Positions 10,206-36,525 of a stretch of 64,000 nucleotides of DNA are shown here, piece by piece. The notes beneath the pieces were generated by a model. The model was not told the DNA's origin. It saw nothing but the letters and a program-made list of their open reading frames with translations, and did no database searches. Every line of letters starts with the position of its first letter. The stretch's first letter is position 1. Source of the DNA: Marsupella aquatica (lineage: Eukaryota; Plantae; Marchantiophyta); assembly GCA_973895155.1 (NCBI GenBank), contig OZ316892.1, forward strand, positions 572,917-636,916, in the 5' to 3' direction. Position numbers and translations under genes: made by a program.

Positions 10206-13200
10206 AGGACCCCAGATGCATATATGAGGGGACTACTAATCGCGAGGCAATTTTGGATGACGATGGGACTTTGGATGACGATGGGATTGGTGCCCACAGC
10301 CTATGGGTGGCCCTCACAGCAATTTGAATACTTTTTGGAAATGTGATGCGGGATGGGTGACCAGGGGAGTGGATGGTGGGTACTTGCGATGCTATGTGCA
10401 ATGGGCAACCAGGGGAGTTTGATGGTGGCCACACCCCATGGGGTGACCCATAATAAAATCTAACACTATGTTAGTTGCGATTCGGGATGGGTGACCACTG
10501 GAATGAAGGGTGGTCGAGGCTCCAAAAGTGGATACCGTAGGGGCAAGAGACATTCTAGAAGGAGGATGATCGCCACCAAGGTTGGGGGGTGGGACGAGGG
10601 ATTGTGGTAAGTAGTATCCTCGATGGATATTGGGTCTCCTCACATGTCTCGGGTCTCTTGCAAAGGTGTGGCCCAACCGGCGTTCAAGATACTTAGGGGT
10701 CTGTCGAGCTTGATTGGGGGTGCGTAAAAACTTATCATTTGTTTTGTGGGTTGGATGGAGATGATGGACGGGTTTTGAGAGTTTTTGCACCATGAGAACC
10801 CCAAGGGAGAGGCTGGAAGCTGATCGTGAGCGTCATGCCCAAAATAAGGAAGCAATAAATGCAAGGCGTCGGCAACAATATGCTCAACGACGATTGCAAA
10901 AGGGGGCTCGAGTCTGTGCAGTGCCACAACCAAGTGCCACACCAACTATGGGTTCCCCGGTGCTGGAACCAAGTGTGGCACTCTTGGCACCACAAGTGGT
11001 TCAGGTGTGGTGCCAAGTGTGCCACCTGCCCACAGAATTAGTGGTCGACAACTACGGCGCGAAGCAAGGGCACCACGACAAACTCCAACAACACCGTTGG
11101 CGAGACCGTTGCTCTCCCTTGCGGGGGCAAGTTTAGAATCAACCGGGGAATCAACTCTGGCATCTGGCCGCGCAAATAGTGGAAGGGAGCTTTGCCGTGA
11201 AGCCAAGGCTACTCAACAAGCCTTGGCCAGATCCATTGCTATCAATAACAGTCGAGAGGTTGCCCCAAGTGCAATATCCAGCCATGCAATGACGCCCGTG
11301 AGCGTTGCATCTGACCCTCCCATGTTCGATGAAGGATGGCTCATTGATGGTGCCTTGGACGCATGTAGGGTTGACCAGCCTGAGCCAGAGGAATTTGCCA
11401 TCCCCCCACCGTGCGAGCCCATGACCAACATTGTGCCACAACATGTAGATGTCTTTGATGAGGGATGGCTTATTCATGGCGCTTTACAAGATGGGGTTGC
11501 CCCTTTGGCCGTCCCCCATGCCCTATGAATCCATACCAAACAATGAACGGTCTAACCATGACATCTTTGATGAAGATTGGCTCATTGACGATGCTCTGCA
11601 CGAGGGGGAAAATCCTATCCTCGATGACAGAGGAGGTCAATTTGACACATTTATTGAGGGCACCTTGGATTTGCCAAATGAATATGAGGAGGACGAGATT
11701 GAGAATATCCTCCAAGAGGAAATGGGAGGCACAAACCTAGCACCAGTTACCCTAGCTCAACTCAATCCTGATGACGTGTTGCGGGAGCGTCAAAGATTGG
11801 AAGAGATCCAACGGTTGCCAAAGGCAAGGCAGCCTTTGGACCCTGCAATGGGTAGACATCTTTTGGGGCGAATGAACATCGAGTGCCCACAATGCAAAGC
11901 GCTTCATTGGATGGAAGAGTGCAAGTCAAGAACACAACGCAACCCGTGCTTCACCATGTGTTGTGCCGACGGGAAAGTGGGATTACCGCCTCTTGGTGCT
12001 CCTCCTGAACCACTTCGAGGCTTGCTGATTGGTACCAATGCCGCAGCTGTAGCATTCCGGAAAAACATTCGTGGCTACAACAATGCACTAGCATTTACGT
12101 CCCTAGGTGTTAAAATTGATGAAAGGGGCGGAAATCGTGGCCCATACTCCTTTCGTATCCAAGGAGCATTATATCCTCGTGTCGGTAGCCTCTTGCCGCC
12201 TGATGGAGCGGGGCCAAAGTTTTCTCAACTCTATATTCATGACACAGGGAATGAGTTGGGGAATAAATAATTAACATGTACAACTTTTTGCCTCAATTTC
12301 CTTTCATATTACATGATCTTTGGAATAAGCTGTCTTATGGATTTTTTTTGGGTTCCAGGATGAATAGGATGCCACAATTGGATCAGGCGGTGTTGGCTTC
12401 CTTGCAAGAGATGCTCCATACGTACAATCCATATGTGAGGGTCTTTAAAAATGCAGGGAGCCGCATTGACAACACCGAGGTGCCAGACGTATTGCTACGT
12501 ATTGTAGCGGAGCGGGACACAGACCCTAGGCGCTACAATAAGCCGACGGCAGATGAAATTGGCGTGATAATGGTCGGAGATGAGGATATTGAAACATGTG
12601 AGAGGGATATAATCCTAAGGAAGAGGAATGGTGGCCTACAACGGATTTCCGAGTGGCATAGGTCCTATGCACCGCTCCATTATGTTTTACTCTTATGACA
12701 TGGTCTTATGACATCCCGTTGGCGGGGCACGAATTCCAGGATGGGGTCATTGTGGCTGTTAAACCAGGGGCCAGGGGTGGACGAAATGGTTCTAAGAAGG
12801 TGACCCAACTTCAATACTATGCGTATATGTTACATGCAAGGCGGGAAGATGATTGGCTGCTTCGTGGAGGAAGATTGCTAAAGCAATTTATTGTGGATGC
12901 ATATGCGTGTATAGACCAGACACGCCTCACATATATTCGGAACAATTAGAAAAAGCTTAGGACCGAGTTATATCAAGGGCTACAAGATGCAATTCAAGAC
13001 GGGGATGCACAAGCAAGCAATGTGGGTAGGACCTACATTTTACCATCCACATATGGGGGTAGTGCACGACATATGATGCAGGCCTATCAGGATGCCATGG
13101 CGGTTGTTCGAACATATGGGCCTCCTGACCTTTTCACAACTTTTACGTGCAATCTTGAATGGCCTAAAATCAAAGTGGAGTGCTTCCCCTACCAGACCCC

Positions 13201-14427
13201 GGCCGACCGCAATGATATTGTGGCGAGAGTCTTCAAACTTAAGTTGAAGGCCCTGTTGGCGGATATTCGGGCAGGGGTATTGGGTAGACCTATTGCCTCT
13301 ATGTATGTCATTGAATTTCAAAAGAGGGGTCTGCCGCACGCCCACATTCTGATAATATTGGTGGAACGACATAAGTTACGCACTCCAGAGTTGGTTGATC
13401 AATTGGTGTCGGCGGAGATACCGGACGCACGAGTACATCCACAATTATATGAAACTATTATGAAGTCCATGGTCCATGGTCCATGTGGTCGTGTATATCC
13501 AAACTCACCTTGCATGGTTGACGGGCAGTGCAGCAAGGGCTATCCACGATCATTCTCAACCGAAACAGTTTTTGGAGATGATGGGTATCCTATGTATCAC
13601 TAGTACATTTTTGGGCCTTTATTCGATAGGATTTACATCGGATCCCTTCAGGAAAATTGACGCAAAAATTTCTATCATTTGATGCAATTCCCAACACACT
13701 TTGCGATGCGTAAACCATCGCATATCGACCATCGGACTTTCTGATATTTTGGACAACGGACGTTCTGTTGTAATGTGTTACGGATATTTTATGTTCGATG
13801 TAAAATGAATCGGATAACTAACACGCGACGGCACACAACGATTTCCTATGTCCGATACTATTTAAATTGGGATGTCCGATATATTTGATATGGCAATTTG
13901 CGAAGTAAATTTTATCGGACATTGCGTTATTTATAATAACGGAAAGTGCGTTAGTTTTTGTATCGGACTATCCGATATGGGAACCTTGAAGGAGGGGTCC
14001 GATGCGTTGGGGATGGGAAAGTTTGAAGGCAACAGCATCGGACACTGCTATATTACCGATACGGATGGTAACGGACTTGCAACGGATTATCAAATGTTCT
14101 GGGGGTGGAATACAGGGTTTCATGGGTGGTTTTTTGGGGGTTTGGGTATTGGTTTAGGGTTGAAGGTGACATACACCAATTAGGAACCAAAGATAATGCT
14201 ATAAACACGAGGTCAAAATATCATATTCAAAAAGGGGATCACTCCAATATGTACAAAATGGATTAGGCCTACTGGGTAGACCCATCCTGGTCGTGATGGC
14301 ACGATAGAAGATGTAAAGAGAGCTTTGACTAGAGACTACACTGAGCTATATACAAGGTACCTCCTAGTGAGTGTCTAATCAAAGCTGTCTAGCACTAGAT
14401 ACCTGGCCACCTAAATGCAACTAACCT

Positions 14428-16962
14428 CTAAAAAGGTGTGTTGCGTCCCTTCTTCTTCTTTGGGCGAGAACAAAGGGTGGGTACAGGTCTAGCATCATGA
14501 GAGCCCTCCTCCCTCTGGCTGCCCACAACCGTGGCAGCCACCTGCTCACCAGATGGCATGGGTTGGCCTGATGCAGGCCTAGACCCTGACCCACTAGATG
14601 CACCGCTAGGGTGGTCAGGCAAGGTAGATGTCCCACCAACCCCCGACACGGCAGAGTGAAAGGACGCCTCAGCTCCTCCCGCAGACCTGCTAGAGTGATG
14701 GGATGGTGCGCCGACAGATCCTGTGGGTGGCCCATGTCGTGCTGTACTCCCACCAGACTCACGAGATGGTGCGTGCCCTCTAGATCCACCATCCGACACG
14801 TCGCCACTACCTCGTCGGGAAGGGCCACCTGCACCAGATACTCCTACGCGATCGCCTCGTCCCATGCCATCACCTCTACTACCCCCTGAGTGCCTGGGCC
14901 CCGCACCCCGTGATGCTCCAGAGCGATGGGAGCCCACACCATCAGCAGCATGTGACCCACCCCTCCCTGCTGATGGGGCAACGGCACCAGATGGGGCAAC
15001 AACACCTTGGACCTGAGGAGTAGGGATGACTGTGGGCACCTCCCCAACCCTGCCTCAGCATCCTGCTCAGAATCTGAGTCCAACTCCTCCGACCTAGACC
15101 CCTCCTCATCCTGTGCAATAGGGTTTAATTGCAGTTAGAATGAATGGTCCCAACCATAACTCTAACAAATTCATGACAACCTTAAACATTATATCACCCT
15201 AGTGTGAACACTTACCTCTCCCAACTCATCCTCAAGGTGGCACTTTAGAGCGCGGGGTCCATCCGTCTTTGCCAAATTCCTCTCCAACGGCGCAATAGGG
15301 CGACCATACTCCCGCTCCTGAAATTTAAAGATCCAAACCATAGAGGCCAGGTTAATATCAAATCTAGTATTAGCGTGCCTACCCTAAACCAAGCCACCCT
15401 ACATAGCCGTAATGTAACCTTAAACCATAGTTCACCCTAACTTTATACTCTACCCTAGTAAAAAATTAACGTTAAGTACGTTCATTCAAAAATTTAAATG
15501 TTTTGCCGAGGGGTCCGATGCAAAGTCCGATACATCCTGCATCGGACGTCTATCGGATGCATAACAAGAAAAATGGCATGACACGGTGTCCGATTCTGCT
15601 TCCAATGCAAAACCTATCGGATGAGTATTGGAAAGTACAGGCCCGAGAGCAAAAATGAGTTTTGCAAAGGGTTTAAACAAAAGACATAAGGCACAAACAA
15701 CTCATTCTTCGTGCGAGGAGTCAGGTGATCAGGGAGTCGAGGTGGGGAGGAGAGGGAGGGCACTTACAAACTCAGCCTTCAATCGATTGGAGCCGCCTTG
15801 CCCCATCCGGTGAGTGATGGTTGGCCTCCCCTGCACTCTCTCCAATGCTGCTATGATGTGCCTTGGTGGTTTGGGGAGTCTTGCTGCCTGAGCTCCATTG
15901 TTGCAGGTTCTGTTGAAGGGGGAGGATATCAACGTTCTCCCCAGCCTTTCACTTCTCCTCTGCCAGCCTAATTTTGTTGTCCCAATGTCTTCTTTTCAGC
16001 CAGGCACGGACTGAGAGTTCCTCCTCAAGCCAAGCCGCCCACTCATCCGGGGAAACATTGTCTGGACAACCCTCCTCCCTGATCACCTCTGCATCCACTG
16101 CCATATCTCCAAGGTACTTTCTGAATTTCTCTCGCTGATGATTGCGCATGTATGAGAGTGATGCTGAAATTCGTTTGTTTAGGAACCTGTCATCAATGTA
16201 GGCCCCGTTCCTGAACCGTTCCTTCACCTGCTCTCTGATTCTCAATCTCTCTTCCTCCTTCTTCTTGCCCCAGTAATCCAGTGGCCCCAAATTGGCCCTC
16301 AGCACCTGCTTGAATTGGCTTCGGAATAGATGGTAGCTCTTAGGCAATGGACCACCACCCGAATTGAGAGCTAGCTCAGGCCTGAGAGCTCTCTCTGCCT
16401 CCTTTTGCCTATGCTCCTCCAATCGCACCTTCTCAATTTCCCTAGCTACTTTTCGAAGCTTTTTGTCTCGTTTTCTTGGAGACAGTGTCTCCTCTGCATC
16501 CCCCTTGCCTCTCTTTGCCTCTTTCTTCCTCTTCTTTGCCTCCTTCTCACTTGCAATGCTTGTAGTAGCAGTCTTCTCTGCCTCACGCCGAGAGGCATCA
16601 ATCAGCGTTTGGAGGAGTGGGACTACTCTCTCTGCATCCTCCACACTCAGCCCTGCCTTGGCCACAAAAATGTCCCTCATAACTTCATTGTATGGTTGGG
16701 ATGGTCCCCCTTGCTCTCCACCACCACCTGATCCCCCTTCGTCTCCCCCACCACCTGATCCCCCGCCCCCCTCCATCTCTCCTCCTCCTTCAAGCTCTCC
16801 TCCTTGATCCAGCTTCAAAAATTTTGAAAAACACCAAGTGCAAAACGGGGCCTGACGCGCGGGTCTTCGCACCTGCATCGGTTCTTTTTTCCGAAACAAA
16901 ACCTGCTGCTTCCGATTCTTTCTGTTTTGGACTTTGCGAAACCAAAGGTATCGGACACGCAA
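14428..16962 (-). pseudogene. TnpA/Ptta-like (Transposase_24-like) second gene of the CACTA element, multi-exon, divergent from the transposase
   Basis: CPDNVSPDEWAAWLEE and ITHRMGQGGSNRLKAEF resemble Ptta/En-Spm ORF2 motifs. Gly/Ser-rich tail. Stop at 15949; the true start is uncertain. Confidence 0.55.
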
Positions 16963-17433
16963 TCGGACTTTCCGAAACTATCTGCTTTGGACCCCTCGTC
17001 CTTTTCTTGTGGCCGTGTATGTACCAAGTGTGGCACGTTTCCTATTGCATCGGACCCCTCATGAAGTTATATCGGATACCTCTTGGCTTTCCCAAAGGGG
17101 GTCCAATATAATGTTTTGAATTTGGGTTGGGTATGGGATTGGAGGGTTTAGAGTATAATTTAGGATATTTAGGTTTTGTATGGGGTAAGGGCACATGGTT
17201 GGAGTTATTATTTGCTTTCATATTTGAATCCGCGTTTTGTAGGGCTCTACATATGTGAACGGGACAGTGAACGTGTCATGCATGTAGAGAGACCTCTTGC
17301 AAGTTTCTTTGTTGCGGAGAACAAATTTTGGGGTTTGTACCGGACTATGTAATTGTTTTGATAAGCTATGGTCTTGCATGCTTAATATATTGGGCTCTAA
17401 TTAATGATGCAATTGTGTATAGAGTCTTGGTGT

Positions 17434-18141
17434 TTTAGGGGTGGTTGTGGTGATGGGAACTCAATACTATGATATGTAATATAGGATCAAGAAAATACTA
17501 CAAGAAGTTTTTGTATGAACCATTTTCGGGTGAAAGCCTTTTGTTTCATTTCTTTATAGGGGATTATGGGTGTACGTAGAGGTTTTATTAGTATAACATT
17601 ATACCTTTTGTTAGGATAATATTAAACCCCTTCATTAGGCTAATCTTTGTGTTTGGATTTGATGTGTAGTACCTTGCTTTTGGAGGGGTGGTTAACTTTT
17701 TTTGAGGGGATAGGGAGGTTTCGATTTTGGACAATGCACTATGCATGAAACTGTGCATCCAGGAGGTACGATGTTCTCTTGCAAGTTCCTTGCAAGTTTA
17801 GGGATGGTTGTGGTGATGGGAACTCAATACTATGATATATGATAGACAAAATACTACAAGAAGTTTTTGTACGAACCATTTCTTGGTGAAAGCTATTTGG
17901 ATCATTTCTTTGGAGGGGTTTATGGGCTTAGGGTTATGGGGTTTTACTAGGATAAGGTTACACCTTTTCTTAGGATAAGGTTCAACCTCCATATATTAGC
18001 TAGGCTAATGGTTGTGTTGGATTTGATGCACAGTACCTTGCGTTTGGAGGGGTGGTTCAATGTTTGTGAGGGGGTAGATAGGTTTTGTTTTGGACAATGC
18101 ACTATGCATAGTGTGAGACCGCGCATCCAGGAGGTATGATG
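17434..18141. repeat. Diverged tandem duplication of about 350 bp between the CACTA element's divergent genes
   Basis: Units start TTTAGGG.TGGTTGTGGTGATGGGAACTCAATACTATGATAT at 17434 and 17797. Both end GCATCCAGGAGGTA.GATG. Confidence 0.8.
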
Positions 18142-18462
18142 CCCCCGCTTCACGAGCCGCATCATTTACACTTAATTTGTATGTTGGAATTTTTTTATAT
18201 GTGGTGTGTTCTTCCTACACTCTTTCGCACTTACAGATTATGTATGCTCATTAGCAAATGCTCACCCATATATGCAGAGATTTTGGATGTCCCACACCTT
18301 GTGTTTAGAAAATACGACACAGTAGGCTGGCAAAGCGCGGGTATCATTGAGGTACAACAGGACTTTTGTATCTCATGCATTAATTAATTCTATTTTGATA
18401 CTCCAACACTTGTCTTCTTTTATGCAGCTTACATGAATTCAGAGTGTACTTCATGCATGCAG

Positions 18463-21400
18463 ATGTCTACTTCTGATAGGTCCACGTCAGATCCAGACTC
18501 AGACACAAGCTCGTCTGAGGGGGAGGTTCCTCCACCCCCTCCTCCAGATCGTCCTCGTGCTCCACTAGGACCCATACCTTGCTGGTGTGTGAGATGTAAG
18601 GGACTTGTGATTCGACATGCGTGGGAGACTTGTGAGCACATCGAGAACTATGGCCGCCACAAGGGTGATATGCCAGGGTATTTGCCTAGCCAGGTACAGA
18701 TATGTTTATGTCCCCTATTCATTCCATATATGCATTACAATTTACGGTATTGCTTAATTATCTTGCATTTATATCCTGGCACTACTTAATTTATTGATTT
18801 GTGTAAAACCATTGTACGTGTGTTGAAATAGGTGCCTCGTAGGCCCCCACCTCCTTTGGTTCCTGAAGCTGTGTGGTTGGAAGGGTTTCTAGCAAGGGCC
18901 AGGGAGTTGCTTGCAGTTCCTCCTGCCCAGATGCCTCTTAGCCCACCTGCTCCTATCCCCACTCACGTGCCCACACATGAGCATGTAGAGGGGGAACCGG
19001 TCTCTCGGCCCGAGGTTGTGCCTACTAGGGTCCTACGTACACGACCACGATCTGGTAGACGTAGACGGCAGTATGGACCACTGGACCAGGTAGACAGACG
19101 AGAGGAGGTGTTAGGTACTAGTGATCGACCAGCCGGTAACGTAGATTATATTTGCGTTGAGGGCAGGTTTGGACTATCCTATCTCACTGGTAGGGTTGCC
19201 GAAGTTTTGAAGGACTTTTCTCCAAGTCTCTTCAAATTTCCAGATTTTATTCCTACAGATGAACCAGTTCAGATATGGGGTCGCCCTTGGATAGTGAAGG
19301 CATCCTCTATTGGTCCTGATATAGGATATGGTATTTTTGCTTTGGAGGATATTGTGGTCCCTCCAAAGCCATGGAGACGTGGTTATGATGGAGAGCACCT
19401 CTTTCCTTACATTGGGGCTGTATATAACTCCAAGAGTTGGAATATTTTGTTGCGTCAACACCCAAGTTGGGGGGTGTATGCATTGAGGATGGACTCAGAC
19501 CCGGATGAGGTCTTCACTAGGCCGTGGCATTGCCGGATGATTGATGGTGACCCTATTCGGAACGGTAATTTAGCAGGGTACATCAATAGTACCACAAGTA
19601 GAGATAGAGGTTTGGAGGCTAATGTAGAGTGGATTCAAATGTTTGGTCCACCTAGACATCCATATTTTGTGAAACATATGGACGACCATATCATGACAGT
19701 AGCTGTTAGTGTAGTATTGCACTAAGGACATAAATCAACATTTAATGCCCAAAACTCGGTATTCGATCCCATGGAAGAACAAGAAAGGAATGATTTTCTA
19801 TCATTTAACACTTATGAATGACTAAGGTAACAAAAACACAGGTTTGAGCCTTTTACTATGATTGCCCAGCAAGGCATAGATTTGAATGTTTGCTTAACAT
19901 TGTAAATGCAATTAATAAAATGGAAACAAATAACAAAACACAATAAAATCTTGAGGTATGATGAGAGAGTCTGGAAAACACCAAGGTAACTTCTCATCAA
20001 TACTTCATTTGATGTGATTTTGGTGGTATATCCGTAAGAACATTTCTGGAATGGATTACTGTACTAGGATGATTACTAAAATGCCGTCAACACGTCTCAA
20101 CTTTTCCTTCCAAAGGTACTAAGAAGAAACTAGTAATCAATCACTTCGATATCCAGTCGGTACTCTGAGTCACGAATAATAAACACCATCATGATCAAAT
20201 TGAAGTCACAGGTAATTGGTGAGTAACAATCTTTACATCCCATGCACAAGCAATGTCACGCCAAAAACTATGCATCAAGAACTCAAGAAGATGGGTTGTC
20301 ACCACTTAAGGAATCTATTCTCTCATACTTCTGAGATTCAACTTCATACAAGTAATTTTACTTCAATGATCTAAACTCTCAATCATTCAGACCAAGGAAG
20401 GGAGAAGAATTCCTTTTGCATTTGCAAGCAAAGGTGATTCCAGTGCTGCAGCACATGCCACATGCACTACTTTATTTCTTCACACTTGAAAATGACACAA
20501 ATTCTACTTCATATAGGCTAGCAGAAACCCAAGGAGACTGAGATACTGAAAAGACATGCCCTTTCATATCTAAAGGGTCTTGAATAAACTTGATGACGGT
20601 CATCCTTGAAAAGTGAATGGACACTGCTGAAAGTGTCAAAAATGCAGGAGACGCTTCTCAAAGCGTCGAGGTTTGAGCGGACGCTTTGCAAAGCGTCGGT
20701 GTTTTTTCGGTAAAACTAATAAACAGTGATCTTAATCTAATTTTAACTTCTAAACTAAAAATCGGAATGAGTTGAAACTTTTCTAGGGTACTCTACTACA
20801 TATAATCTCTATGCTGACAAAGTTTCAGACTTTTCTGAGATCTCTAAGTGCCTCAAATAAATCGGTAAAAGTGGCGCGGTGTTATAAAAGTGCGAAAACT
20901 GAAAATTTTTCCAAGTGTCGGGAACATAGTGGACGCTTCAGAAAGCGTCCAAAACTACAAAGGACTTTTGTGGACGCTTTAGAAAGCGTCGGCTGAATTT
21001 CGAGGTTTTGGTCGCAGCGTCCGTCTTCTGGTCTTCGGGCGGGACGCTTCAGTGGGCGTCGCAGTGTCGATGTCGCCTTCGGGGTAGCAGATGCTTCTGT
21101 GGGCGTCGCTCCTCATGTGGATTGCAGAGCGTCGGAGTACAATTGGTTGGGTGGCGGACGCTCCAGAAAGTGTCGTGGTCTTGGGTGGACGCTTTTCAAA
21201 GCGTCCAAAAATACAAAGGACTTTTCTCAAAGCGTCGGCGAAGTCACGGCTATGTAAAAAATACCTAAACTAAAATAATTTTAACTTTCAAACCACATGT
21301 AGGTTTGAGATGAAACTTTCAGGGATGATTCTACTACGTAACTACTAACTCTTGAAAAAGTATGAGACTTTTCTGACCACTTTAGCTATTTAACTAAAAT

Positions 21401-21808
21401 AGCAGAGATCGGCTGATTGTGATAATTGCACAGAGAGCTCATTCTTGCTGAAGAAGTGTTTTGGAGTCCGGTTCTTGAATCTTCTAGTCTGCATTGCTTC
21501 TCCAATGATGTCCAGTCTTCTTTCTTGGTAGCATGTAAAGAGCAAGGATTTATATTGGCGATCCTTGTCCAATATAGGCAATAGCCTCCGATGAAGCATA
21601 ACATTAGGTAAAGTGTTCAGTTGATCTAAATTGCTACAAAAGGTAACTAGAATGCACCTTTGAGTTAGAAAAAGTTTAAAATTTCTAAAATTTCCATCAT
21701 TTCTAACTAATGTACAGCATTACAGTTAGGACCATTAGAGCTGGTGAGGAGTTATTCTGTGAGTATGAGTGGGATGCACCAAAATTGTCCTTGCGTTGTC
21801 GTCCATGA
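18463..21808 (+). pseudogene. SET-domain protein inside the CACTA element (exon 18463-18693; exon 18832-19709 + 21730-21808, split by a solo LTR)
   Basis: IVKASSIG..GYGIFALEDI...DGDPIRNGNLAGYINS...ANVEW. After removing the LTR it continues MTVAVRTIRAGEELFCEY, the canonical SET motif order. Confidence 0.8.
19710..21724. mobile_element. Solo LTR (2015 bp), second family
   Basis: TGTAGT...ATTACA ends and TSD GTTAG (19705-19709, 21725-21729). No credible ORF. Its removal restores the SET frame. Confidence 0.88.
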
Positions 21809-24394
21809 TAGTTTCTTGGACTTACATACATGTATATATATATGTCAGTTTATTTTACATGTTTACATGAGAATGATGTTGTTCAGCAGTGCATGTGTTG
21901 ATGAGATTAATTAATTGATGTTGTATGATAGAATCAATATGTAACGCCTGATATTGGGGTAATATCACGAGCTATGCGACAATACCTTGTTGAGGCCATG
22001 GTGGCCAACCGTGGGCATGAACCGCAAAGGCAAGAGGATGGGGTACGACATGATGGTGATGATCCTATCCAAGACCATCTTGATGAGGAGAGGGCCATGG
22101 ATGAGCTCATGGACCAATTCTATGATGATCACGATGACATTGGTTTGGAGGACATTGGTTCAACCCATGAAAGGACTAGTCATCCACATCCTTCTAGGGG
22201 GTCCCAAGACAAGCAATGGGAGGAGGCGCAACGTCATGCCCGTACTCGCATATTCGAGGGGAGTAGGTTATCTCGGCTCTCATCAATAATGTTGTTGCTC
22301 AACTTGCGGCAAAGACATGGGGCAAGCAATCTACTTTTGGATGATGTTTTCCGTACCTTGCATGATCATATTTTGCCAGTAGGCAATGCATTGCCAGCCT
22401 CTTGGAAAGAGGCTAAACAGGTGTTGAGGTCCATTGGCCTGAAGTATGAGGTGATACATGCATGTGTGGATGATTGCATTCTTTTTAGGGGTGAGCATGA
22501 AAATGCCACTACATGTCCTAAATGTCAGAAGCCACGGTACCGTGATGACATGTTGACGGGGAAGGTACCGCAAAAGGTTATGAGGTACTTTCCTCTTATC
22601 CCTCGATTGCGACATCAATTCCGATGTGCAGAGTTGGCTGAGATGATGGTATGGCACTCACAAAATCGTTCTGATATGGTTGTACCCTCTAGTGCCATGC
22701 GGATGATGGTTGACTCTCCTGCCAATCGATTTGTAGAGGATAGATGGGGAGAGTTCAAAATTGACCCACGACATGTTCGACTAGGCTTGGCAGCAGACGG
22801 TATCAGCCCTTTTGCATTGACAGGAAAAGCCAAACCATATTTGGTGTGGCCAGTAGTGTTGACAAACTACAACATCCCTCCTTGGATGGCCATGAAGAAA
22901 GGTCACCTACTAGTCTCCATGATTATTCCGGGTCCTAAGCAAGTTAAAAAGATTGATGTGTACTTGCAGCCATTGATTGATGAGTTGATACAACTGTGGA
23001 GAGGAGTGGATTCTTGTGATGGACGTCACAACACAGGAGGTTTATCCCGCGTATTTACTCTAAAGGCCATCCTTATGTGGACCATGCATGATTTACCAGG
23101 TATGGTAAACCCTTATTTCCTCTAGTACCTAAACCTTGTATTTAATTGCAATTATGCAGATTTTTGCCTTGATGAACCTTATTTTATGAATGTGTTTTCT
23201 ATGCACTGGGCAGGGTTTGGATATGTTTCTGGATTGCAAACATCAGGCTATCGAGCTTGCTCTACATGTGGACCCGATTTGGAGGGGGTGGCCAGGCCCA
23301 AGTCAAGTACTTTGCAAAAAATTCTTTACATTGGTCATACTAAATATCTTCCACCAGACCATCCTTGGAGGAGTGATCCATTCCTTTATGATACTGATGA
23401 GGGCCAACCTGATATTCGTCCTCAACCTCAGCGGAAGGATCCAGCATATTGGAGAGAGGTATGGGGGAGAGTTCAGGATCCGAGTGATCCATTACCATTA
23501 TTCAGATGTGGCATGACCCGTTTGTTTGCATTGTCACAATTGCCATATTGGTTAGATATGCCCATTAATCACTTGTTAGACCCTATGCACATTGAGGGGA
23601 ATGTGGGGAAATCATTGATTCGCAATCTATATGGGGAGAAAAATAACAATTGGAGAGAAAGTTGTGAGGAGATGGGGATGCATGGTCTTTTGGGTTTTTG
23701 GCCATCTTTGGACCCCCTTGGTGCTCCCCCTAGCATCCATCCTCCTTGGGTTTTGACAAGGGCAGAGCGCATTGAGTTTCGCAGACGTATTGGGTTGATG
23801 AGGTTTCCCACAGGTTATGGTACCAATCTTCGGAAGGCATTTGGGGGGGAGGATTCTCCAAAATGGCCATCTTTCTTGAAGACACATGATTATCATCGGT
23901 TGCTTGAACATGTTCTTCCAGTTGCTATTATTGGATTGGGTAGTGAGGAACTTCGTGATGCCCTTTGGTCATTGGGTAAGCTCTTAAGATGGGTATGTCA
24001 AAAGGAGGTACAAGAGGATGACATTGCTGCTATGGAGATATTTGGAGTAGAGGTTGTCTGCAAGTTGGAGAAGGCACTCCCTCCCTCATTCTTTGATGGT
24101 CAGGTTCATTTCCTCATACATTTAGTGCGCGAGGTTGCAATTGCAGGCCCAGTACATTGTCGATGGATGTATTGGGTAGAGCGTTATATGGGGGTGATGA
24201 AGTCATATGTCTTTAATCGCGCTAGGGTGGAAGGTAGCATTGCGGAGTGTCATCTTGGAGCAGAGAGTATGTTTTACTGTACAAACATAGTTGCCACACT
24301 AGATCCTAGTGCTCCTAGGGGATGGATAGATGAGGCGGCACGAGAGGCTGACTACGAGGATGATAGACTCACTGGGGCATCTGGAGAGCGTCTC

Positions 24395-27300
24395 TGTGAT
24401 GCCTAGACAGGAATCACTCGGCCGGTTAAGTGGGTAAAGCAGGAAGGCACCCTAGGAACACCTTAGTATAGGGACAAAACAAGGAAAATATAAACAATTA
24501 GGGGCAACCATGGAACCCGGGCAGAGGCCGGAGGTAAGGCTGAGGGTGAAAACCCGATTAGGGTTAGGGCGCGTTAAGCGTCGGCGGCTAGGAAGGATCA
24601 ACGGGAAGAAGGACCGGCAGAGGAGAGGGGTAAGGAGCGCTTGCAGGAGATGGTGGCTCATTTGCGAGCACGAACTAGGCAGACGACTACGGGAGGCCAA
24701 CTACTGTCAGTTGCTTAGGCAAGCACTCGGGGAGAGAATAGATACCGACGATCGACCTAAGGAGGGTATGAGCAATGTCAATCAAGCGGCACATTTCTGG
24801 GGATGCCTGTTCGAACGGGCAACTGAGTACATCAAGACTTACGAGGACGAGGAGTCAGAAAGGGCAGCTCGAGAACGGCAGGAGCTCGCTCGATTGTGGG
24901 AGCTGCAGAAGACGGCTTTCTTAGGAGGCGAACTCATCAAGGACGAGTTCCTGTGGACGCCTACTTCCAATCAACTCGACGATCTTCTGTTTTGCAAAGA
25001 CAGCGTCGTCGGCATCCGAGAGGCCATCAAGAACTGCAACGACATACACTGGGAATTAAAGGGTAGCACGAAAAGGTGGACCCAGGCAACGGTGCTAGGA
25101 GAAACCTCCACGGCAGCAGAGATGAAGAGGAAGGGGGCCGTCAACGATGAAGCCACCCCGGCAAAAAGAACGAGGTCGGTGGCACCAAAGAGGCCAGCCG
25201 AGCAGCAGAGCAGGAGGCAGGGAGAAGCCGAAGAGGAGGAGGTCGATCCCATCAAGGCCATTCCAACCAGGGATGACACCTGGAAGGGCTGGGCGGCAAC
25301 CCTACCGGTGGAGGTGCAACTACATTTTGCACGGGAGGAGGATGCATGCTTTACGGCCATGCAGACCAAGAAGTACCAAGGCTTCATGGCCGGATCCGGC
25401 TTGGAGGCCTTTGTAAGATTACCATGGCTGAAGCCGGAGGTACCGGAGTCAGACCTATTAGAATTCGTGGGGTCATGGGAACCCGAGACCAATTGCACGA
25501 GGATATATGGGAAGGATTTCTATCTTACTCCCAAGGTAATTGCCGAAGTGTTTGGCTTGCCGATAGGCAATAAGACCAAAGTTGATACCAGGAAGACCCT
25601 GCCTGACAAGGAGTTCCGGTCGTTCCCCGGGCCATCAACGAAGAATGGCTTCTTCCGGAACACCTGCACCAACCCGCACATAGGAGAGATGATCGACTTC
25701 TTGCGGGTGACCATGCATTGTAACTTGCCGAGGGCAGAGATCGGCAAGGCACAGGTCTATCTGGCAGAAAGGCCAGACCCAAGCCGGGACTACAACGGGT
25801 ACCTCCTCAACCAATTGAAGAAGATCTTAAAGGAGGAGCAGCAGGTAATCGGCATGGGGAGCGTGTTGCAGCTTGGCTATCACATGCCGCTGTTGTGCCG
25901 GTATGCCAGAGGTCAGACTTTTGCCCCGGTACTTCCCCTGCAGGTAAGGGCACCCGAGGAAGCTCCAACGCCGAGGCCGTTGGCTGAGAAGCCTCAACCA
26001 CCTGTTAGTCCTACGATCGAGCAGGTGTTTAGGCCCAGGAAGGAAGACTTGCCGATGCAGCAACCAGGCATGCAGAGTCTGCTGAAACTACTGGAGAAAG
26101 AAAAGAAATCGGCATCGGCAACAACAACGGCAACGGCAACAATGCAGGACACTACTACAGAGGTAGGCCTACACCGGCTCACAAGAGAAAACCCCTTTGC
26201 TGGAGACAAGGAGAGAATCAGGCCGGAATCCAAGCCAGGTGTTCGAATGTACGTGGGAACCTCAAGCTCCGAATCTGAGGCAGAATTGCCTGAAGCTCCT
26301 ACCGACGAAGAGGAGAGGGAGAAGCCGGACATCCAAGAGGTAGAGGAGGCAGTGGAGGACTGCAGCCATGATAATTCCGGCTATGGGTCGGACCATCACG
26401 TTCCAGGAGTAAGGACCTGTGGCCGGTTTGTCCCCACACTTCCAAGGGTAGTGCGAGGGGACCCCAACCAGCAGAGTAGCCCTGAGTCTCCCCCACCAGA
26501 TGTTGCTCCCCCGAGCTTCGACGGCATAAAACAGACGGTGCAGGAATTTCAGGAGCGAATCAAGCAGGAGGAAGAGGCCGCCCTGGCTAAGGAAAAGGAT
26601 TTACCAGGAGGAGATTGGCCGGAGGACATCAGGCGGCTAGCCAAAAAAGGAAGCAAACCTCTAGCCACGATTGAAGAGATCCGCAGGACGGCTTGGGAGC
26701 AGAGGCCACAATGGGCGATGCCGATCACTTCTACTTACTCCACCTACGCTAAGAATAGAGCCATGGAGTATGGTGAGATGTGTGGGGAACTTGCGCTCGG
26801 CATCTTTGGAGAGGAGTTGGAGGTAGGACCCTTTTTCCATAGGGAGCAGTTGGAGAAGCACCAATTAGAAGAAGCGGTGGCTTTAGAGAGAAGCAAGAAG
26901 GACGAGGTCATTCGGCGGCTTAGGAGGATGGAAGCCGAGATTGAAGATCTAAGGGCGGCCAAGAAAGCCCAAGATGAACTGCGGATTAAACGACATGAGC
27001 TGAACATCATGCAGGGGCAGTTGGACATCGCGCAGGCTGATAATCAGAATATCAAGGATAAACTAACTCAGACGCAGGGAGAGTTGGCCGACACGATCAA
27101 AGAGAGGGAGAAGTGGAAGCAAGAGCTGAAGAATACAGAGGAGGCCCACATAACAGCCAACAGCCGGGCCATGGCGGAGACCCAAAGAAAGGAATGGGCG
27201 TTGAAAGGGGAGCTCGAGAAAATCCGCGGAGCCCTTGAGCAGAAGGAGGTCGAGTTAGGGAAATCCTATCAAGGGATTATGGCGCTGCAGCAGGAGCTTG

Positions 27301-29054
27301 CGTCCCTGACGGCCAGCTTCAAGGCCGACCTAAGGGAGAAGGACGAGATGCTCGAACAGACTTACGCCAAGATGAACCAGATGGAGTCTGTCATCATTGC
27401 AGAGCTCGACAAGGAGCTAAGAGCAAACCAGGAGGAGAGGGCTACCTTGAAGAAGGAATTGGAGGAAGCCCACAGGGAGCAGGAGGAGGCCAAAAACGAG
27501 CTGGAGGGGGCACGTAAGGACCTGGATGAAACCCAAGAGGAGTTGGAGGAAATCACGAGGAAGATGGAGAACCTACAGCGGCGGGCCGACAACCAAACAG
27601 AGCGGCTGAAGAAACAAGCCGCAGTATTTAAATGCTTAGCTGCAGCAGGTCCATCTCCTGTTGGGACAAACCAGTTACCAGGGGTGGTAATTGCCGAAGG
27701 ACAAGCCGCGCCAACTGCACCAGTGCCAGAAGTAAGTGGGAAGGGGAAGGGACCAGCTGCCGAGCCACCAACAAAGAAGAAGCGGAAACCTTCAGGGTCA
27801 AGGAGTAATACGACTTCACAGGCCGTGGTGATCAAGGAGGTAGACCCAGCACCAACCCCAGACAGGGTCACGGCTAAGGATCCAACTACCCTAGGGGAAG
27901 GGGAGGCCGAAGCCGAGGGAGTGGCTGAAGCCGAAGCCGTGGGAGTGGCTGAGGCCAAAGCCGTGGGTATTGCCGAGGCCGGTGTCGAGGCTGAAGCCGA
28001 AGGTGGACCCAGTCAGGCCGATGGAGAGTTGACTCAGTCAAGGGCAGGTAATCTGTCAGAGAATGAACCTACGGCAGTGGCTGAGGAGGAAGTGTTGGGG
28101 GCGTCCATTGAGGATCCACCACCGGTGTCGTGACGGTGCAAGGGCGCCGTTCCTTTTAGGGAGGGCGGACGTGGAGGGAGGAGGCGTGAGTGGGCAGGGC
28201 GGGCGCGGATCTCCACGTTTAGGATTAGGATCAGAACCAGGAGCGGCCCTGACACTTAGCTTAGTGGGATTGCGGTCCCACTGGTAGGAGCAACACTTGT
28301 GCTCCTGCCTTGCTGTACATGGGTAGATTCGGGCAAGTAGATTACTGTTAGGTAGATTAGGCTTACGATGCAAAGAATGGCGGATCCACTACCAGGATAA
28401 GTACCTGGGCAGCGGGGAGCTCAGGGCCTCTTCTTTAGCAAGTTTTTAGTTTGCACCAGCCGGGCTGGGATCAAGTAGTACGAGAAGCTCTCGGTTAGTC
28501 ATACAGTGACCCTTGTGTATATTCATGTTTCCTCATGCCTAAGAGCTGAATAGAGTTGGCCTCACGGCTTAGTTCGCAGAACTTGTGTATGAGATGTACT
28601 GTTTGTATGGCAAGTGCATGGTATGACTCAGTCAGAATGAGTCATTTTGCTATTTGTGTGTCGCATTAACTTGTGTGAAGAGTGCCCACATCAACAGAAG
28701 GAAGGAAAGTAAGCAGGGGAGTGAGAGTTGGATGTGTCGAGCTGAGAGAGGTCTTAGCGGCTTAACCAAGCCTATTGGGGATCATTCCGGCGGCGGAATC
28801 CAAACATACCTAACAAAACGGAGGGGAAGACAGGGGAAGACAGGGGAAGGCCTATATTAGGCCGGCTACGTATCTCATGACCCGATGAAGGATCTGTCCA
28901 GTATATGTGTGTAAAATGTTAATAGTAGTAGTAGAAGGTTAGCAGCGTCCCATGCCGCTAAGCCGCGGAAACGGCCTCGCCAAGCACGAAACCTGCGGGA
29001 ATCGGCTTGAGCTGGGGGGTTTCTTGGGTTTAGGGAGCCATGGGACGCACCACA
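24395..29054 (+). mobile_element. Giant solo LTR, copy 2 (4660 bp)
   Basis: TGTGATGC...GCACCACA with TSD GTCTC (24390-24394, 29055-29059). Confidence 0.95.
24510..28133 (+). CDS. Intact 1207-aa LTR-encoded protein: plant-mobile-domain/Athila-ORF-like segment, long coiled coil, basic NLS-like motif
   Basis: Uninterrupted 3.6-kb ORF conserved in four copies. LLEFVGSWEPETNCTRIYGKDFYLTPKVIAEVFGLP resembles PMD-type motifs by eye. E/K/Q/L-rich heptad region and TKKKRK. The true start may be the ATG at 24768. Confidence 0.8.
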   Translation: MEPGQRPEVRLRVKTRLGLGRVKRRRLGRINGKKDRQRRGVRSACRRWWLICEHELGRRLREANYCQLLRQALGERIDTDDRPKEGMSNVNQAAHFWGCLFERATEYIKTYEDEESERAARERQELARLWELQKTAFLGGELIKDEFLWTPTSNQLDDLLFCKDSVVGIREAIKNCNDIHWELKGSTKRWTQATVLGETSTAAEMKRKGAVNDEATPAKRTRSVAPKRPAEQQSRRQGEAEEEEVDPIKAIPTRDDTWKGWAATLPVEVQLHFAREEDACFTAMQTKKYQGFMAGSGLEAFVRLPWLKPEVPESDLLEFVGSWEPETNCTRIYGKDFYLTPKVIAEVFGLPIGNKTKVDTRKTLPDKEFRSFPGPSTKNGFFRNTCTNPHIGEMIDFLRVTMHCNLPRAEIGKAQVYLAERPDPSRDYNGYLLNQLKKILKEEQQVIGMGSVLQLGYHMPLLCRYARGQTFAPVLPLQVRAPEEAPTPRPLAEKPQPPVSPTIEQVFRPRKEDLPMQQPGMQSLLKLLEKEKKSASATTTATATMQDTTTEVGLHRLTRENPFAGDKERIRPESKPGVRMYVGTSSSESEAELPEAPTDEEEREKPDIQEVEEAVEDCSHDNSGYGSDHHVPGVRTCGRFVPTLPRVVRGDPNQQSSPESPPPDVAPPSFDGIKQTVQEFQERIKQEEEAALAKEKDLPGGDWPEDIRRLAKKGSKPLATIEEIRRTAWEQRPQWAMPITSTYSTYAKNRAMEYGEMCGELALGIFGEELEVGPFFHREQLEKHQLEEAVALERSKKDEVIRRLRRMEAEIEDLRAAKKAQDELRIKRHELNIMQGQLDIAQADNQNIKDKLTQTQGELADTIKEREKWKQELKNTEEAHITANSRAMAETQRKEWALKGELEKIRGALEQKEVELGKSYQGIMALQQELASLTASFKADLREKDEMLEQTYAKMNQMESVIIAELDKELRANQEERATLKKELEEAHREQEEAKNELEGARKDLDETQEELEEITRKMENLQRRADNQTERLKKQAAVFKCLAAAGPSPVGTNQLPGVVIAEGQAAPTAPVPEVSGKGKGPAAEPPTKKKRKPSGSRSNTTSQAVVIKEVDPAPTPDRVTAKDPTTLGEGEAEAEGVAEAEAVGVAEAKAVGIAEAGVEAEAEGGPSQADGELTQSRAGNLSENEPTAVAEEEVLGASIEDPPPVS

Positions 29055-31870
29055 GTCTCATAGGCTCAGCAGAGCGTTTACAGCTCATAACATTTATGTT
29101 GTATAACTCACCCGAGGTTGTCGGGGAGCGGACAACATTTTATGAGGAGGAGAAGCAAAACAGTCGACGCCCACAGTTATTTCCCAAGTTTCACCCATAC
29201 ATGAAGGAGAAGTTGTTAGAAGTGGATGCCCTGGTGGGTACCGGGGAGAGTGTATTACACTACCCAAACGTGACAGATAAACTTCGTACCTTGGTTCATG
29301 GTCCACTACTTATAGTCACGACTCGGACTGCCATGTGGTCAAAGGGGAGACATTTTTGTGTGGAACGACTTGATGAGAAGAGGGCAGCTACACAGGATTG
29401 TGGGGTGATGGGTTGGTTCACCCAAGATTCCCAGAGTAGCATGTCAGACATGAATCCCATTCGCTCCACCGTGGCCCATTATGGGAAGATTGAGGAGATC
29501 CTAACAGTGAAGTACCATGCACATACTACTTTGGAGGAAGTGGTATTCAAGTGCAAATGGTTCAAGATGAATCTTGTAGGCCACAATCGTACTTGTGAAG
29601 ATGATGCATGCGGTTTTACTCGTTTGAAGACATCCGCAAATAGTGTCATCAGTTCCAACTGGAGGTCCTCAGATCCCTTTGCCTTCCCACATCACCTTGA
29701 GCAATGCTTTTACCTACCCTATATCCCAATGACCCCGAGTGGTCCATTGTCATACCGTATATTCCCAGATCACGGTCCATAGTCCAAGAGAGACCCAACG
29801 TAGTTGTAGTGGAAGATAGAGACATACCCCCCACGAGTTAGTATAAATTGTAGACCCCACCATCTTCATGTATATTTTTACCGGCACTATCTTTTTATCG
29901 GCATTCTACGATTTTTCTCATTGTCCATAATTTCATGCAGTATACATATCTATTGCGTAAAGTATGCCCCATGTCTGAATCCATTAATTCCATGCAACCT
30001 ATACATTGTAAAACACTAAAGTCCCATATGTCCCATTCAAATACCATCGGAAACATATCGGACACACATCAGTACTGCCAAAGCAAAAAACCCCTTCCCA
30101 TCCTCAAAGTATCGGATTTTCCGATACTATAACAATCGGAAGCCACTATCCGATACTCCACAGATTGGACGCTTAAGCCCGCAGCCGAGGAGGGGTTCGA
30201 TAGAAATTTCAACGGATAGTAACTGATACCTCAGCCTTCGCAAATGATTTCCGTTGTAGCTAGTATCGCAAAAATATGTCCGATACCATTTGTATCGGTA
30301 AATGTCCGAAACCAAACCTATCGGAATTAGCTTTCGATACTATTATTATCGGACGTCTGAAAAACATGTCGGCTCTCAATTTGCGATACAGGATGTTTCG
30401 GACATTGTCTGATATGATGGGTATTGGATAAAGTTTTTGATACAAAACATATCGGATAATAATGTCCGATTTTGGTAGTATCGGAAGTTCCGTAGCTGGG
30501 AGTATCGGAAGTTTTCCGTTGTGTTTAGTATCGGGAGCGTTGAGAAATGCGTGTTTTTAGTATCGGAAAAGTGCCTAAAATGTACTAGTGTATCGACGTT
30601 GGGATGATGGCCGCAATTTCTCAAAAGACCGAAGTGGGTTTAAGTTTGACAATAGGTGGGTTGTTCCTCATAGTCCATATTTGAGCATGAGATTCAATGC
30701 CCATATTAATGTGGAGATTTGTTGCTCTATTAAAGCAATCAAGTATTTATACAAGTACTGTTATAAAGGGCATGATAAGGCAACGGTTGAGGTGGAGCAA
30801 CGAGATGAAGTGAAGGAGCACTTAGATGCCAGATATGTGTTTGCTGCTGAGGGAGTATGGCGCATTAACCAGTTTTAAATGTCTGAGAGTACTACTTCGG
30901 TGCAACGGCTGCAAGTTCATTGTGAGGGGGAACAATCTATAATGTTCAATGAGGATTCTAACATCAGTGATGTGGTTCAACAAGAATCTCATAGGGACAC
31001 AACTCTCACAGGGTGGTTCAGAGCTAACACTTTGCATGAACAGGCAAAACAACTTCTCTACAGCAATTTCCCCCATGAGTTTGTATGGGATACGTCCTCC
31101 TGTGCATGGAACCCACGAAGAAGAGGGTTTAGCATTGGTAGGATGTATTTTGTGCCACCAGCCGCGGGTGAACGGTACTATTTGAGGGCGCTTCTTCTTC
31201 ACATCAAAGGTGCAACATCATTCATCGACCTTTGCACTTTTGAGGGCACTGTATACCCCATCTTTCAAGCAGCGGCTCTTGCTCGGGGTTTGTATGAGAA
31301 CGATGAGGAGTGGGATAGATGCCTTCAAGAAGCGGCAAGCATGCACACCGGTGCGCAAATACGACAACTATTTATTACAATATTGTTGTTTGGAGGTGTT
31401 GCCAAACCATGCGACCTATGGGCACAATATGCATCCAATTTGAGTGATGATTGTAGGTATCGTTTGCAATTGATGGGCTTCTTAGATTCTACAGAGCAGC
31501 AACAACAAAGCTTTGCTCTACATTTGATGGATGAGGCTTTGAAAAGTGTGGATAAAACCTTGTTGGAGTTTGGTCTTCCGGAACCAGGTATGGATTTTTT
31601 CCAAGAGGAAGAAAATAGAAACCGGTTGATAAGAGAGGAGACATGTTATCCAATGGATGTACTTCTACAACAACTTGCAGAGCAAGAGCCGTTGTTGAAC
31701 GAGGGTCAAAGGGCAATGTACACTGCAATACTTGCAGCCGTGAGGGCTCGAGATGGAGCGACATTCTTTATTGATGGACCAGAGGGGACGGGCAAAACAT
31801 TTGTGGAGAATGTTCTACTTCGGAGAGTCCGTGTAGATGGGGATGTCGCATTGGCCGTAGCTTCCTCGGG

Positions 31871-34800: not shown

Positions 34801-36525
34801 GATGCTGATTTCTTTTCTTTCTCCAGTAGTTTCAGCAGACTCTGCATGCCTGGTTGCTGCATCGGCAAGTCCTCCTTCCTGGGCCTAAACACCTGCTCGA
34901 TCGTAGGGCTAACAGGTGGTTGAGGCTTCTCAGCCAACGGCCTCGGCGTTGGAGCTTCCTCGGGTGCCCTTACCTGCAGGGGAAGTACCGGGGCAAAAGT
35001 CTGACCTCTGGCATACCGGCACAACAGCGGCATGTGATAGCCAAGCCGCGACACGCTCCCCATGCCGATTACCTGCTGCTCCTCCTTTAAGATCTTCTTC
35101 AATTGGTTGAGGAGGTATCCGTTGTAGTCCCGGCTTGGGTCTGGCCTTTCTGCCAGATAGACCTGTGCCTTGCCGATCTCTGCCCTCGGCAAGTTACAAT
35201 GCATGGTCACCCGCAAGAAGTCGATCATCTCTCCTATGTGCGGGTTGGTGCAGGTGTTCCGGAAGAAGCCATTCTTCGTTGATGGCCCGGGGAACGACCG
35301 GAACTCCTTGTCAGGCAAGGTCTTCCTGGTATCAACTTTGGTCTTATTGCCTATCGGCAAGCCAAACACTTCGGCAATTACCTTGGGAGTAAGATAGAAA
35401 TCCTTCCCATATATCCTCGTGCAATTGGTCTCGGGTTCCCATGACCCCACGAATTCTAATAGGTCTGACTCCGGTACCTCCGGCTTCAGCCATGGTAATC
35501 TTACAAAGGCCTCTAAGCCGGATCCGGCCATGAAGCCTTGGTACTTCTTGGTCTGCATGGCCGTGAAGCATGCATCCTCCTCCCGTGCAAAATGTAGTTG
35601 CACCTCCACCGGTAGGGTTGCCGCCCAGCCCTTCCAGGTGTCATCCCTGGTTGGAATGGCCTTGATGGGATCGACCTCCTCCTCTTCGGCTTCTCCCTGC
35701 CTCCTGCTCTGCTGCTCAGCTGGCTTCTTTGGTGCCGCCGACCTCGTTCTTTTTGTCGGGGTGGCTTCATCGTTGACGGCTCCCTTCCTCTTCATCTCTG
35801 TTGCCGTGGAGGTTTCTCCTAGCACCATTGCCTGGGTCCACCTTTCCGTGCTACCCTTTAATTCCCAGTGTATGTCGTTGCAGTTCTTGATGGCCTCTCG
35901 GATGCCGACGACGCTGTCTTTGCAAAACAGAAGATCGTCGAGTTGATTGGAAGTAGGCGTCCACAGGAACTCGTCCTTGATGAGTTCGCCTCCTAAGAAA
36001 GCCGTCTTCTGCAGCTCCCACAATCGAGCGAGCTCCTGCCGTTCTCGAGCTGCCCTTTCTGATTCCTCGTCCTCGTAAGTCTTGATGTACTAAGTTGCCC
36101 GTTCGAATAGGCATCCCCAGAAATGTGCCACTTGATTGACGTTGCTCATACCCTCCTTAGGTCGATCGTCGGTATCTACTCTCTCCCCGAGTGCTTGCCT
36201 AAGCAACTAACAGTAGTTGGCCTCCCGTAGTCGTCTACCTAGTTCGTGCTCGCAAATGAGCCACCATCTCCTGCAAGCGCTCCTTACCCCTCTCCTCTGC
36301 CGGTCCTTCTTCCCGTTGATCCTTCCTAGCCGCCGATGCTTAACGCGCCCTAACCCTAATCGAGTTTTCACCCTCAGCGTCCTTACCTCCGGCCTCGGCC
36401 CGGGTTCCATGGTTGCCCCTAATGGTTTATATTTTCCTTGTTTTGTCCCTATACTAAGGTGTTCCTAGGGTGCCTTCCTGCTTTACCCACTTAACTGGCC
36501 GAGTGATTCCTGTCTAGGCATCACA
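31871..36525 (-). mobile_element. Giant solo LTR, copy 3 (4655 bp), ORF disrupted
   Basis: Same termini, TSD TCGGG (31866-31870, 36526-36530). Interrupts the Helitron helicase at VASSG|IAS. Confidence 0.95.

Follow-up and report, generated by a model that had tools for sequence, protein, structure and literature searches.

A CACTA transposon of the liverwort Marsupella aquatica with a SET-domain exon nested in its transposase gene and predicted to share the transposase's first coding exon

We analyzed a 64,000-nt stretch of the genome of the liverwort Marsupella aquatica (GenBank assembly GCA_973895155.1, contig OZ316892.1, forward-strand positions 572,917 to 636,916), hereafter the window, numbered from its first letter. 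At 13598-30590, the window holds a complete CACTA transposon of 16,993 bp (~10.3 kb without two later insertions), and an exon encoding a SET domain lies inside its transposase gene. The 14-bp left terminal inverted repeat (TIR), CACTAGTACATTTT, is at 13598-13611 on the + strand and the right TIR, 14/14 identical, at 30577-30590 on the - strand, with the duplicated TAT just before the former and just after the latter. TIRs starting with CACTA, a 3-bp target-site duplication, a Transposase_21 domain, and subterminal repeats together place the element in the CACTA/EnSpm superfamily. The exons, intron, and spacer described below lie on the + strand, while the element as a whole, its insertions, and its subterminal repeats are given without strand.

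The coding part of the gene opens with an exon at 18463-18693, encoding 77 residues that comprise a Ser/Pro-rich start and a CxCxxC...H domain (IPCWCVRC...EHIENYG; C40, C42, C45, and H59) and terminating in a phase-0 donor, CCTAGCCAG|GTACAG (CAG|GTACAG). The original prediction, made from the sequence without database searches, took this for the first exon of the element; it is instead the first coding exon, since an acceptor (CATGCAG|ATG) stands immediately upstream of the ATG at 18463 and blocks farther upstream end in GT. These blocks, at 18090-18353 on the + strand (GT ends at 18134 and 18352), are candidate short 5′ untranslated exons, on which related contigs align while skipping the spacers. 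A tandem duplication of ~350 bp (17434-17773 and 17797-18141, 80% identical) doubles one of them. Two phase-0 acceptors follow the donor, namely TTGAAATAG|18832, which opens the SET exon after an intron of 138 nt (18694-18831; GC fraction, 0.30), and GTATGATAG|21932, which opens the transposase at the 3′ end of an AT-rich spacer (21809-21931; 123 nt; GC fraction, 0.28). When the sequence was re-read, the coordinates, the exon translation, the donor, and both acceptors that had been predicted proved right.

The SET exon is split by an insertion. Its 5′ part (18832-19709) encodes a Pro-rich linker, an Arg-rich stretch, and the motifs GYG, FPYIG, DGDP, GNLAGYINS, and NVEW, and its 3′ part (21730-21808) encodes GEELFCEY, with the catalytic Tyr position, and the stop. 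Between them lie 2,015 bp (19710-21724) with TG...CA ends and a 5-bp duplication, GTTAG. Removal of this insertion restores 957 coding nt in a single frame that closes with TGA at 21806-21808, confirming both the exon's own stop at 21808 and the C-terminal motif said to be hidden until the insertion is taken out. The two halves match adjoining positions, 5-260 and 261-279, of a family profile built without the window sequence (E = 2.6e-106 and 5.6e-10, respectively). Moreover, contigs from four of four read runs skip precisely the 2,015 bp (19704>21725 and 19703>21726), so uninterrupted copies exist. The insertion is probably a solo long terminal repeat (LTR), as had been proposed: the TG...CA ends, the 5-bp duplication, and the lack of a long open reading frame (ORF) agree with this. 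No parent retroelement was identified, and the window has no second copy of the insertion. Joined to the restored SET exon, the first coding exon would yield a 395-residue Cys/His-SET protein.

Downstream, the transposase occupies an exon at 21932-23099 (Transposase_21, PF02992; E = 4.9e-38), an intron at 23100-23213, and a further exon from 23214 to 24394 that carries the remainder of Transposase_21 and DUF4218 (PF13960; E = 2.1e-30). A second insertion of 4,660 bp (24395-29054; TG...CA ends; 5-bp duplication GTCTC) separates these from the 3′ part at 29060-29782, where DUF4216 (PF13952) scores below the cutoff and a frameshift near the end is probable. The translation contains CSTC and HFLIH, corresponding to the C(2)C and H(3-4)H motifs by which CACTA transposases have been defined (PMC12730594). 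The nearest named relatives are plant CACTA transposases, and the closest named sequences for both the SET domain and the transposase, at 71% identity each, come from the leafy liverwort Calypogeia fissa. The window copy of the element is dead, because both its SET and its transposase genes are interrupted.

To place the SET exon among its relatives, we used a SET profile search, which returned 130 clusters at 50% identity; among the 30 clusters looked up, named sources were Riccia sorocarpa, Calypogeia fissa, and, distantly, Ginkgo. Distant members outside the main clade included P0130 (Ginkgo), P0063 (Calypogeia), P0072, P0077, P0090, P0110, and P0111. A metagenome scan gave 18 loci: one family accounted for 16 copies, L002 represented a second that is 81-84% alike to the first in the SET region, and L018 was a weak match. 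Both families, at 40-50% protein identity to the window, have the same order of parts, with phase-0 sites where checked. A homolog of the first coding exon lies upstream of SET in 8 of the 18 loci, the transposase start lies downstream in 12, and all three parts are present in 6; most of the incomplete loci are interrupted or reach a contig edge. Splice sites were located by patterns from L002 and L016 and then checked by translation. Eight loci gave a phase-0 donor and 10 gave a phase-0 SET acceptor, whose AG is intact in 8 but mutated in L010 and L016; the transposase acceptor, CATAG|AAT and likewise phase 0, was located in 11. The SET exon of these loci closes with its own stop, and the spacer from there to the transposase is 146-147 nt in the 16-copy family. 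Absence or loss of the SET exon in relatives, which would have spoken against the prediction, was not what we found: the layout and the SET domain are kept across families. At L016:4117-14016 lies another element, ~9.9 kb long and nearly complete, that has the same gene layout, an ACA duplication, and ends reading CACTAC... and ...TAGTAATG.

We also analyzed the ratio of nonsynonymous to synonymous substitution rates (dN/dS). Of 10 full SET exons, 5 were open, 3 had stops, and 2 had frameshifts. The SET core of the relatives is under purifying selection, with a dN/dS of about 0.3 (0.30-0.34 for L002 against three copies of the other family; bootstrap intervals within 0.18-0.52, upper bounds 0.48-0.52), and the same comparison gave 0.51-1.05 for the linker. 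For the few SET/transposase pairs, branching was compatible between a SET tree (70 of 139 rows kept, family sequences only) and a transposase tree, the pairs being too few for a test of co-descent.

The first coding exon had been likened to the transposase-associated domain PF13963. This likeness is supported by profile homology and by sister transposases that hold the domain in a single ORF, though not by a direct match, as the window exon has no PF13963 match and the exons of L002 and L008 have no Pfam match at all. Among relatives, P0049 reached E = 0.031 for PF13963. When nine exon-1 pieces were compared, as a profile, with 34 N-terminal domains from other CACTA transposases, hhalign gave a probability of 94.8% (E = 4.9e-8); eight of the nine pieces scored above all 1,800 shuffles. 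The Cys/His motif was found within the first 150 residues of 0/27 of the closest transposase ORFs vs. 37/93 of more distant ones. A quick tree of 74 transposases grouped all five of those known to adjoin SET within one 33-row clade (Shimodaira-Hasegawa-like approximate likelihood ratio test, 95), whose sister group holds P0185, a single assembly-derived ORF matching PF13963 at E = 3e-4, and P0188, a fern gene model; in both, the motif is joined directly to the transposase. Together, these comparisons support homology of the first coding exon with the N-terminal Cys/His domain, which in sister transposases lies within a single ORF. Most simply, then, insertion of the SET exon would have parted the Cys/His domain from the transposase body, in which case splicing must rejoin the two. 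A [P/S]RR-like motif stands ~10 residues past the transposase acceptor; in the window, P0168, and P0180 (not in L001), it comes ahead of the first Met. No long transposase of the SET-adjoining clade (682-2000 residues) was present among 448 candidates, which is weak evidence. A structure model of exon 1, confident at residues 41-60, matched no known structure (Foldseek best E, 7.3; no Z ≥ 2); because the model is small, this null search says nothing on the fold. A complex predicted for exon 1 and the second ORF product, computed without alignments, scored 0.00, which speaks neither for nor against contact.

Several lines of evidence suggest that the first coding exon also feeds the SET exon. 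In the window, where the first Met is codon 34, and likewise in P0001 and P0002, no Met occurs within the 26 residues that open the SET exon; those of the window are identical to the latter two at 11/26 and 12/26 positions, respectively, and 0 of 10,000 shuffles did as well. On this pattern, translation of the window's SET exon likely begins upstream of it. In P0001, a Calypogeia gene model, the same two exons are linked at Q|VP, the Cys motif region precedes SET in five Riccia gene models, and P0018, which comes from an assembly, carries the exon-1 and SET domains together in one 423-residue ORF, as would fit an mRNA or an intronless copy. Judging from sequence, we consider a junction of the 18693>21932 type, joining the first coding exon to the transposase, very probable, and one of the 18693>18832 type, joining it to the SET exon, probable to a somewhat lesser degree. 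Three joints in the read data (18696>18818, 18696>18821, and 23102>23212) were rejected as splice junctions because they lie inside introns; the unknown letters between their sides fit diverged DNA copies.

The SET domain itself was recognized through intact relatives, as the window's SET fragment alone has no match to Pfam SET (PF00856); the identity originally proposed is upheld by Pfam and fold in those relatives and not by the window's own fragment. PF00856 scored above the cutoff in six of the nine first matches as well as in L002 and L003. A model of the P0006 SET domain from a 44-sequence alignment (predicted local distance difference test, 89.6) had SETD8 as its top Foldseek match (E = 1.7e-7), reached Z-scores of up to 12.3 with Set1 (root-mean-square deviation 2.9, 126 aligned), and also matched LegAS4, G9a, MLL1, PRC2, PR domains, and viral SET proteins. 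This modeling supports a SET fold for the intact relatives of the exon. As the structural scores tie between SET subfamilies, the matches indicate no substrate and no origin. As to origin, the atlas neighbors of the SET domain were, at near-equal scores, a streptophyte SET cluster, an unnamed cluster, and a giant-virus SET cluster; narrow searches gave no relative in viral contigs (54 pattern matches, 0 confirmed) and no exact match in prokaryote genomes to one degenerate DNA pattern.

We then considered whether the domain could be an enzyme. In SET domains, the GxG motif binds S-adenosylmethionine and a C-terminal Tyr is catalytic (PMC10653858), and the window SET carries both. Across 136 family proteins, with rows chosen by the SET profile and denominators counting the proteins that cover a column, the two GxG glycines were present in 91/96 and 93/98, the Asn in 91/102, and the final Tyr in 73/74. 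The best sequence match in the PDB was Legionella LegAS4/RomA (E = 1.6e-6), found with a 44-sequence profile; searches with a single sequence or with 8 sequences gave nothing significant. At ~20-26% identity, GxG, GN...YIN, and the final Tyr are aligned, and LegAS4/RomA, like this family, lacks the His of the N-H motif, having N-F-S in place of N-H-S. This protein methylates histone H3 at lysine 14 (bioRxiv 10.64898/2026.05.29.728679, PMC10653858), so loss of the motif His does not rule out activity. From these motifs, we lean toward a catalytically active SET enzyme. An Arg-rich stretch ahead of the SET domain is present in the window, P0001, P0002, and P0014, and as a guess it may serve nuclear import or nucleic-acid binding.

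Putting these parts together, we hold with slightly better than even confidence that the first coding exon is spliced either to the SET exon or to the transposase, with a SET product that is likely a working lysine methyltransferase and probably targets the chromatin of the element itself. The ancestor of one bryophyte clade would have gained the SET exon at the boundary of the Cys/His domain and the transposase body, and the exon would serve as an alternative last exon. Use of the near acceptor would give the 395-residue Cys/His-SET protein, ending before the transposase, so that choosing the SET exon would yield the SET protein instead of transposase, whereas use of the far acceptor, with the SET exon skipped, would give a transposase with a normal N-terminus. 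Through the shared Cys/His domain, both products would reach a common partner or site, where SET would mark the chromatin of the element. We tentatively suggest, with rather less confidence, that the shared domain co-targets both products and that the mark may exert a chromatin effect at cognate elements, helping them to escape or tune silencing. The fullest version, in which an old bryophyte CACTA clade captured a minimal His-less SET as a splice-switched, Cys/His-delivered, histone-writing anti-silencing system, is speculative, and we think it doubtful as a whole.

A number of observations weigh against this reading and bear on its alternatives. With regard to splicing, the junctions 18693>18832 and 18693>21932 are absent from the 15 of 115 joints listed, none of five read runs is recorded as RNA, and the four runs used behave as DNA, with contigs that cross intron 1 without a gap. 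Neither P0001, a gene model, nor P0018, possibly an intronless copy, proves splicing, and no protein was found that joins exon 1 directly to a transposase of the SET-adjoining clade. The dN/dS of exon 1 (0.58; 0.32-1.08) is not significant. Furthermore, the profile test of exon 1 and the motif counts lean toward agreement, because both profiles were centered on CxCxxC and the counts come from proteins picked by that profile, and the transposase tree is a quick search with no bootstrap and no Plavaka sequence. The SET exon has an ATG at codon 4 in the 16-copy family and at codon 6 in L002, which would suit a SET gene nested as a separate unit, started from its own ATG or from untranslated exons spliced to the SET acceptor, with exon 1 serving the transposase only. 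This arrangement is rather unlikely given that the window, P0001, and P0002 share 26 conserved residues ahead of any Met, that donor and acceptor are phase 0 wherever these were located, and that P0018 has both domains in a single ORF. Alternatively, an internal donor of the SET exon could link exon 1, part of SET, and the transposase into a single fusion protein, as is suggested by Riccia models that fuse SET pieces to Transposase_21 (P0056, P0075, and P0076) or to the transposase start (P0009, P0032, and P0089). However, these models exit the SET exon at several differing places, mostly ahead of the final Tyr, this Tyr and the stop behind it are conserved, and a crude scan, in which window and loci were scanned with different patterns, found no common internal donor; we consider such a fusion very unlikely.

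Other points concern what the SET protein would do once made. The canonical SET motif is N-H, and some SET/PR domains act as binders without catalysis. In this family, the His occurs in 0/102 proteins and Ser takes its place in 94/102, the residue two before the final Tyr is small or aliphatic, and within one family dN/dS is 0.49-0.60, which is compatible with 1 and not significant. The doubt over activity that the original prediction attached to the window's YINST is weakened, in that Ser at this position is the family state and an active enzyme lacks the His too. The substitutions would agree with a SET domain that is produced by the same splicing and is catalytically dead, binding histone tails or a partner, as would the PR domains among the structural matches (Z = 11.0 for PRDM3 and 10.8 for PRDM5) and the lack of a cysteine-rich post-SET tail behind the Tyr. 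Such a loss sits poorly with the near invariance of GxG, Asn, and final Tyr and with a closest solved sequence that is His-less yet active, and we judge it improbable. An active methyltransferase might instead modify the element's own proteins or a host silencing protein, since SET domains methylate nonhistone targets as well (PMC10653858) and, the small Cys/His domain aside, no histone-reader or DNA-binding module accompanies this one. Histone methyltransferases nevertheless account for the best match by sequence and the top ones by structure, although tied Z-scores name no substrate, and we regard a nonchromatin target as quite unlikely.

The remainder of the element and its surroundings are as follows. 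Clusters of ATCGGA/TCCGAT repeats, read from the sequence without a chance control, lie near both ends, at 13637-14037 (in both orientations) and at 30046-30562. Head-to-head with the SET/transposase unit is a second, divergent gene on the - strand (14428-16776, approximate limits from reading frames; a frameshift near 15950), with an H..G.GG motif ahead of a donor. It is kept in the 16-copy family (tblastn, 24-32% identity in L005, L006, L008, L010, and L016) and matched no Pfam or NCBIfam family; its position and the H..G.G motif make it a TnpA-like candidate. An Rfam scan of 13500-30700 gave no match. The whole CACTA element splits a Helitron Rep/helicase gene (11449-13597 and 30591-31895), whose two sides, with Helitron_like_N at the left and PIF1 at the right, are in register across the TAT. 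The 4.66-kb TG...CA sequence with its 5-bp duplication that interrupts the transposase is one of four copies in the window (24395-29054, 5549-10205, 31871-36525, and 41378-45083; 92-98% identity). It has a stop-free frame of 1,225 codons, rich in coiled coil and without a Pfam family above the cutoff, and no recognizable integrase or reverse transcriptase; possibly, it is an unusually long solo LTR or a nonautonomous element carrying its own gene. A tandem array of a 19-bp unit occupies 37840-38220.

The findings also bear on gene annotation. Four Riccia sorocarpa models named "SET domain-containing protein" (P0014, P0017, P0032, and P0056) carry pieces of exon 1 or transposase and are, by this content, probably transposon copies, not host genes. 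Many of the liverwort gene models annotated as SET domain-containing proteins are probably fragments of such elements and may swell tallies of host SET genes.

Both halves of the proposed system have precedents. In En/Spm, several proteins are made from one transcription unit by alternative splicing (PMC1636069, bioRxiv 10.64898/2026.08.24.746577). The element described here resembles maize En/Spm, with its TnpA and TnpD, and Arabidopsis Spm3 in its CACTA ends, 3-bp duplication, Transposase_21 domain, and predicted alternative splicing. In En/Spm, however, the alternative product is the DNA-binding regulator TnpA, whereas here it would be a captured SET domain nested in the transposase gene, and the divergent TnpA-like candidate forms a gene of its own. 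The accessible part of the Spm preprint (bioRxiv 10.64898/2026.08.24.746577) makes no mention of "SET domain," "moss," or "liverwort." A SET domain on an element of the EnSpm superfamily is known from the red algal Plavaka PAG2, which carries PF00856 and is a proposed chromatin modulator (bioRxiv 10.1101/2025.02.11.637652). PAG2 is a separate gene that combines an N6-adenine methylase (PF01555) with SET, while here the SET domain would share an exon with the transposase, in a land-plant clade, and Pfam scans found no PF01555 in 9 + 66 family proteins, L002, or L003.

Other DNA transposons have likewise acquired SET methyltransferase genes, namely HarbingerS and Phytophthora MuDR (PMC12730594) and Helitrons (bioRxiv 10.1101/2025.02.11.637652). 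These belong to other transposase superfamilies and carry SET as an accessory gene and not as an alternative transposase exon; the present element is no HarbingerS, as its transposase is PF02992 with CACTA ends and not of the Harbinger type. In the literature covered, we found no land-plant CACTA element in which a SET exon lies inside the transposase gene and both use a common exon, although Repbase and Table 6 of the Bostrychia preprint could list some. Within that scope, SET cargo on DNA transposons and En/Spm splicing were already known, and the nested, shared-exon form in land plants appears new. Transposon-borne SET genes have been listed for several lineages without, in the accessible parts of those sources, a reported activity or target. 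This clade offers a testable land-plant case, with intact relatives, liverwort and moss genetics, and an enzyme that would be tied to transposase output by splice choice. If the reading is true, it would also reveal a role for the N-terminal Cys/His domain of CACTA transposases, and the element would carry its own chromatin-writing protein. The model for this role is VANC, a VANDAL-encoded factor that changes the epigenetic state of its own element and induces hypomethylation (bioRxiv 10.1101/2025.02.11.637652, PMC12730594); VANC is carried by Mutator-type elements, and anti-silencing is proposed here by analogy. Should the SET protein prove to act on the chromatin of its element, it would stand beside the anti-silencing factors VANC and TnpA as one that works by writing histone marks.

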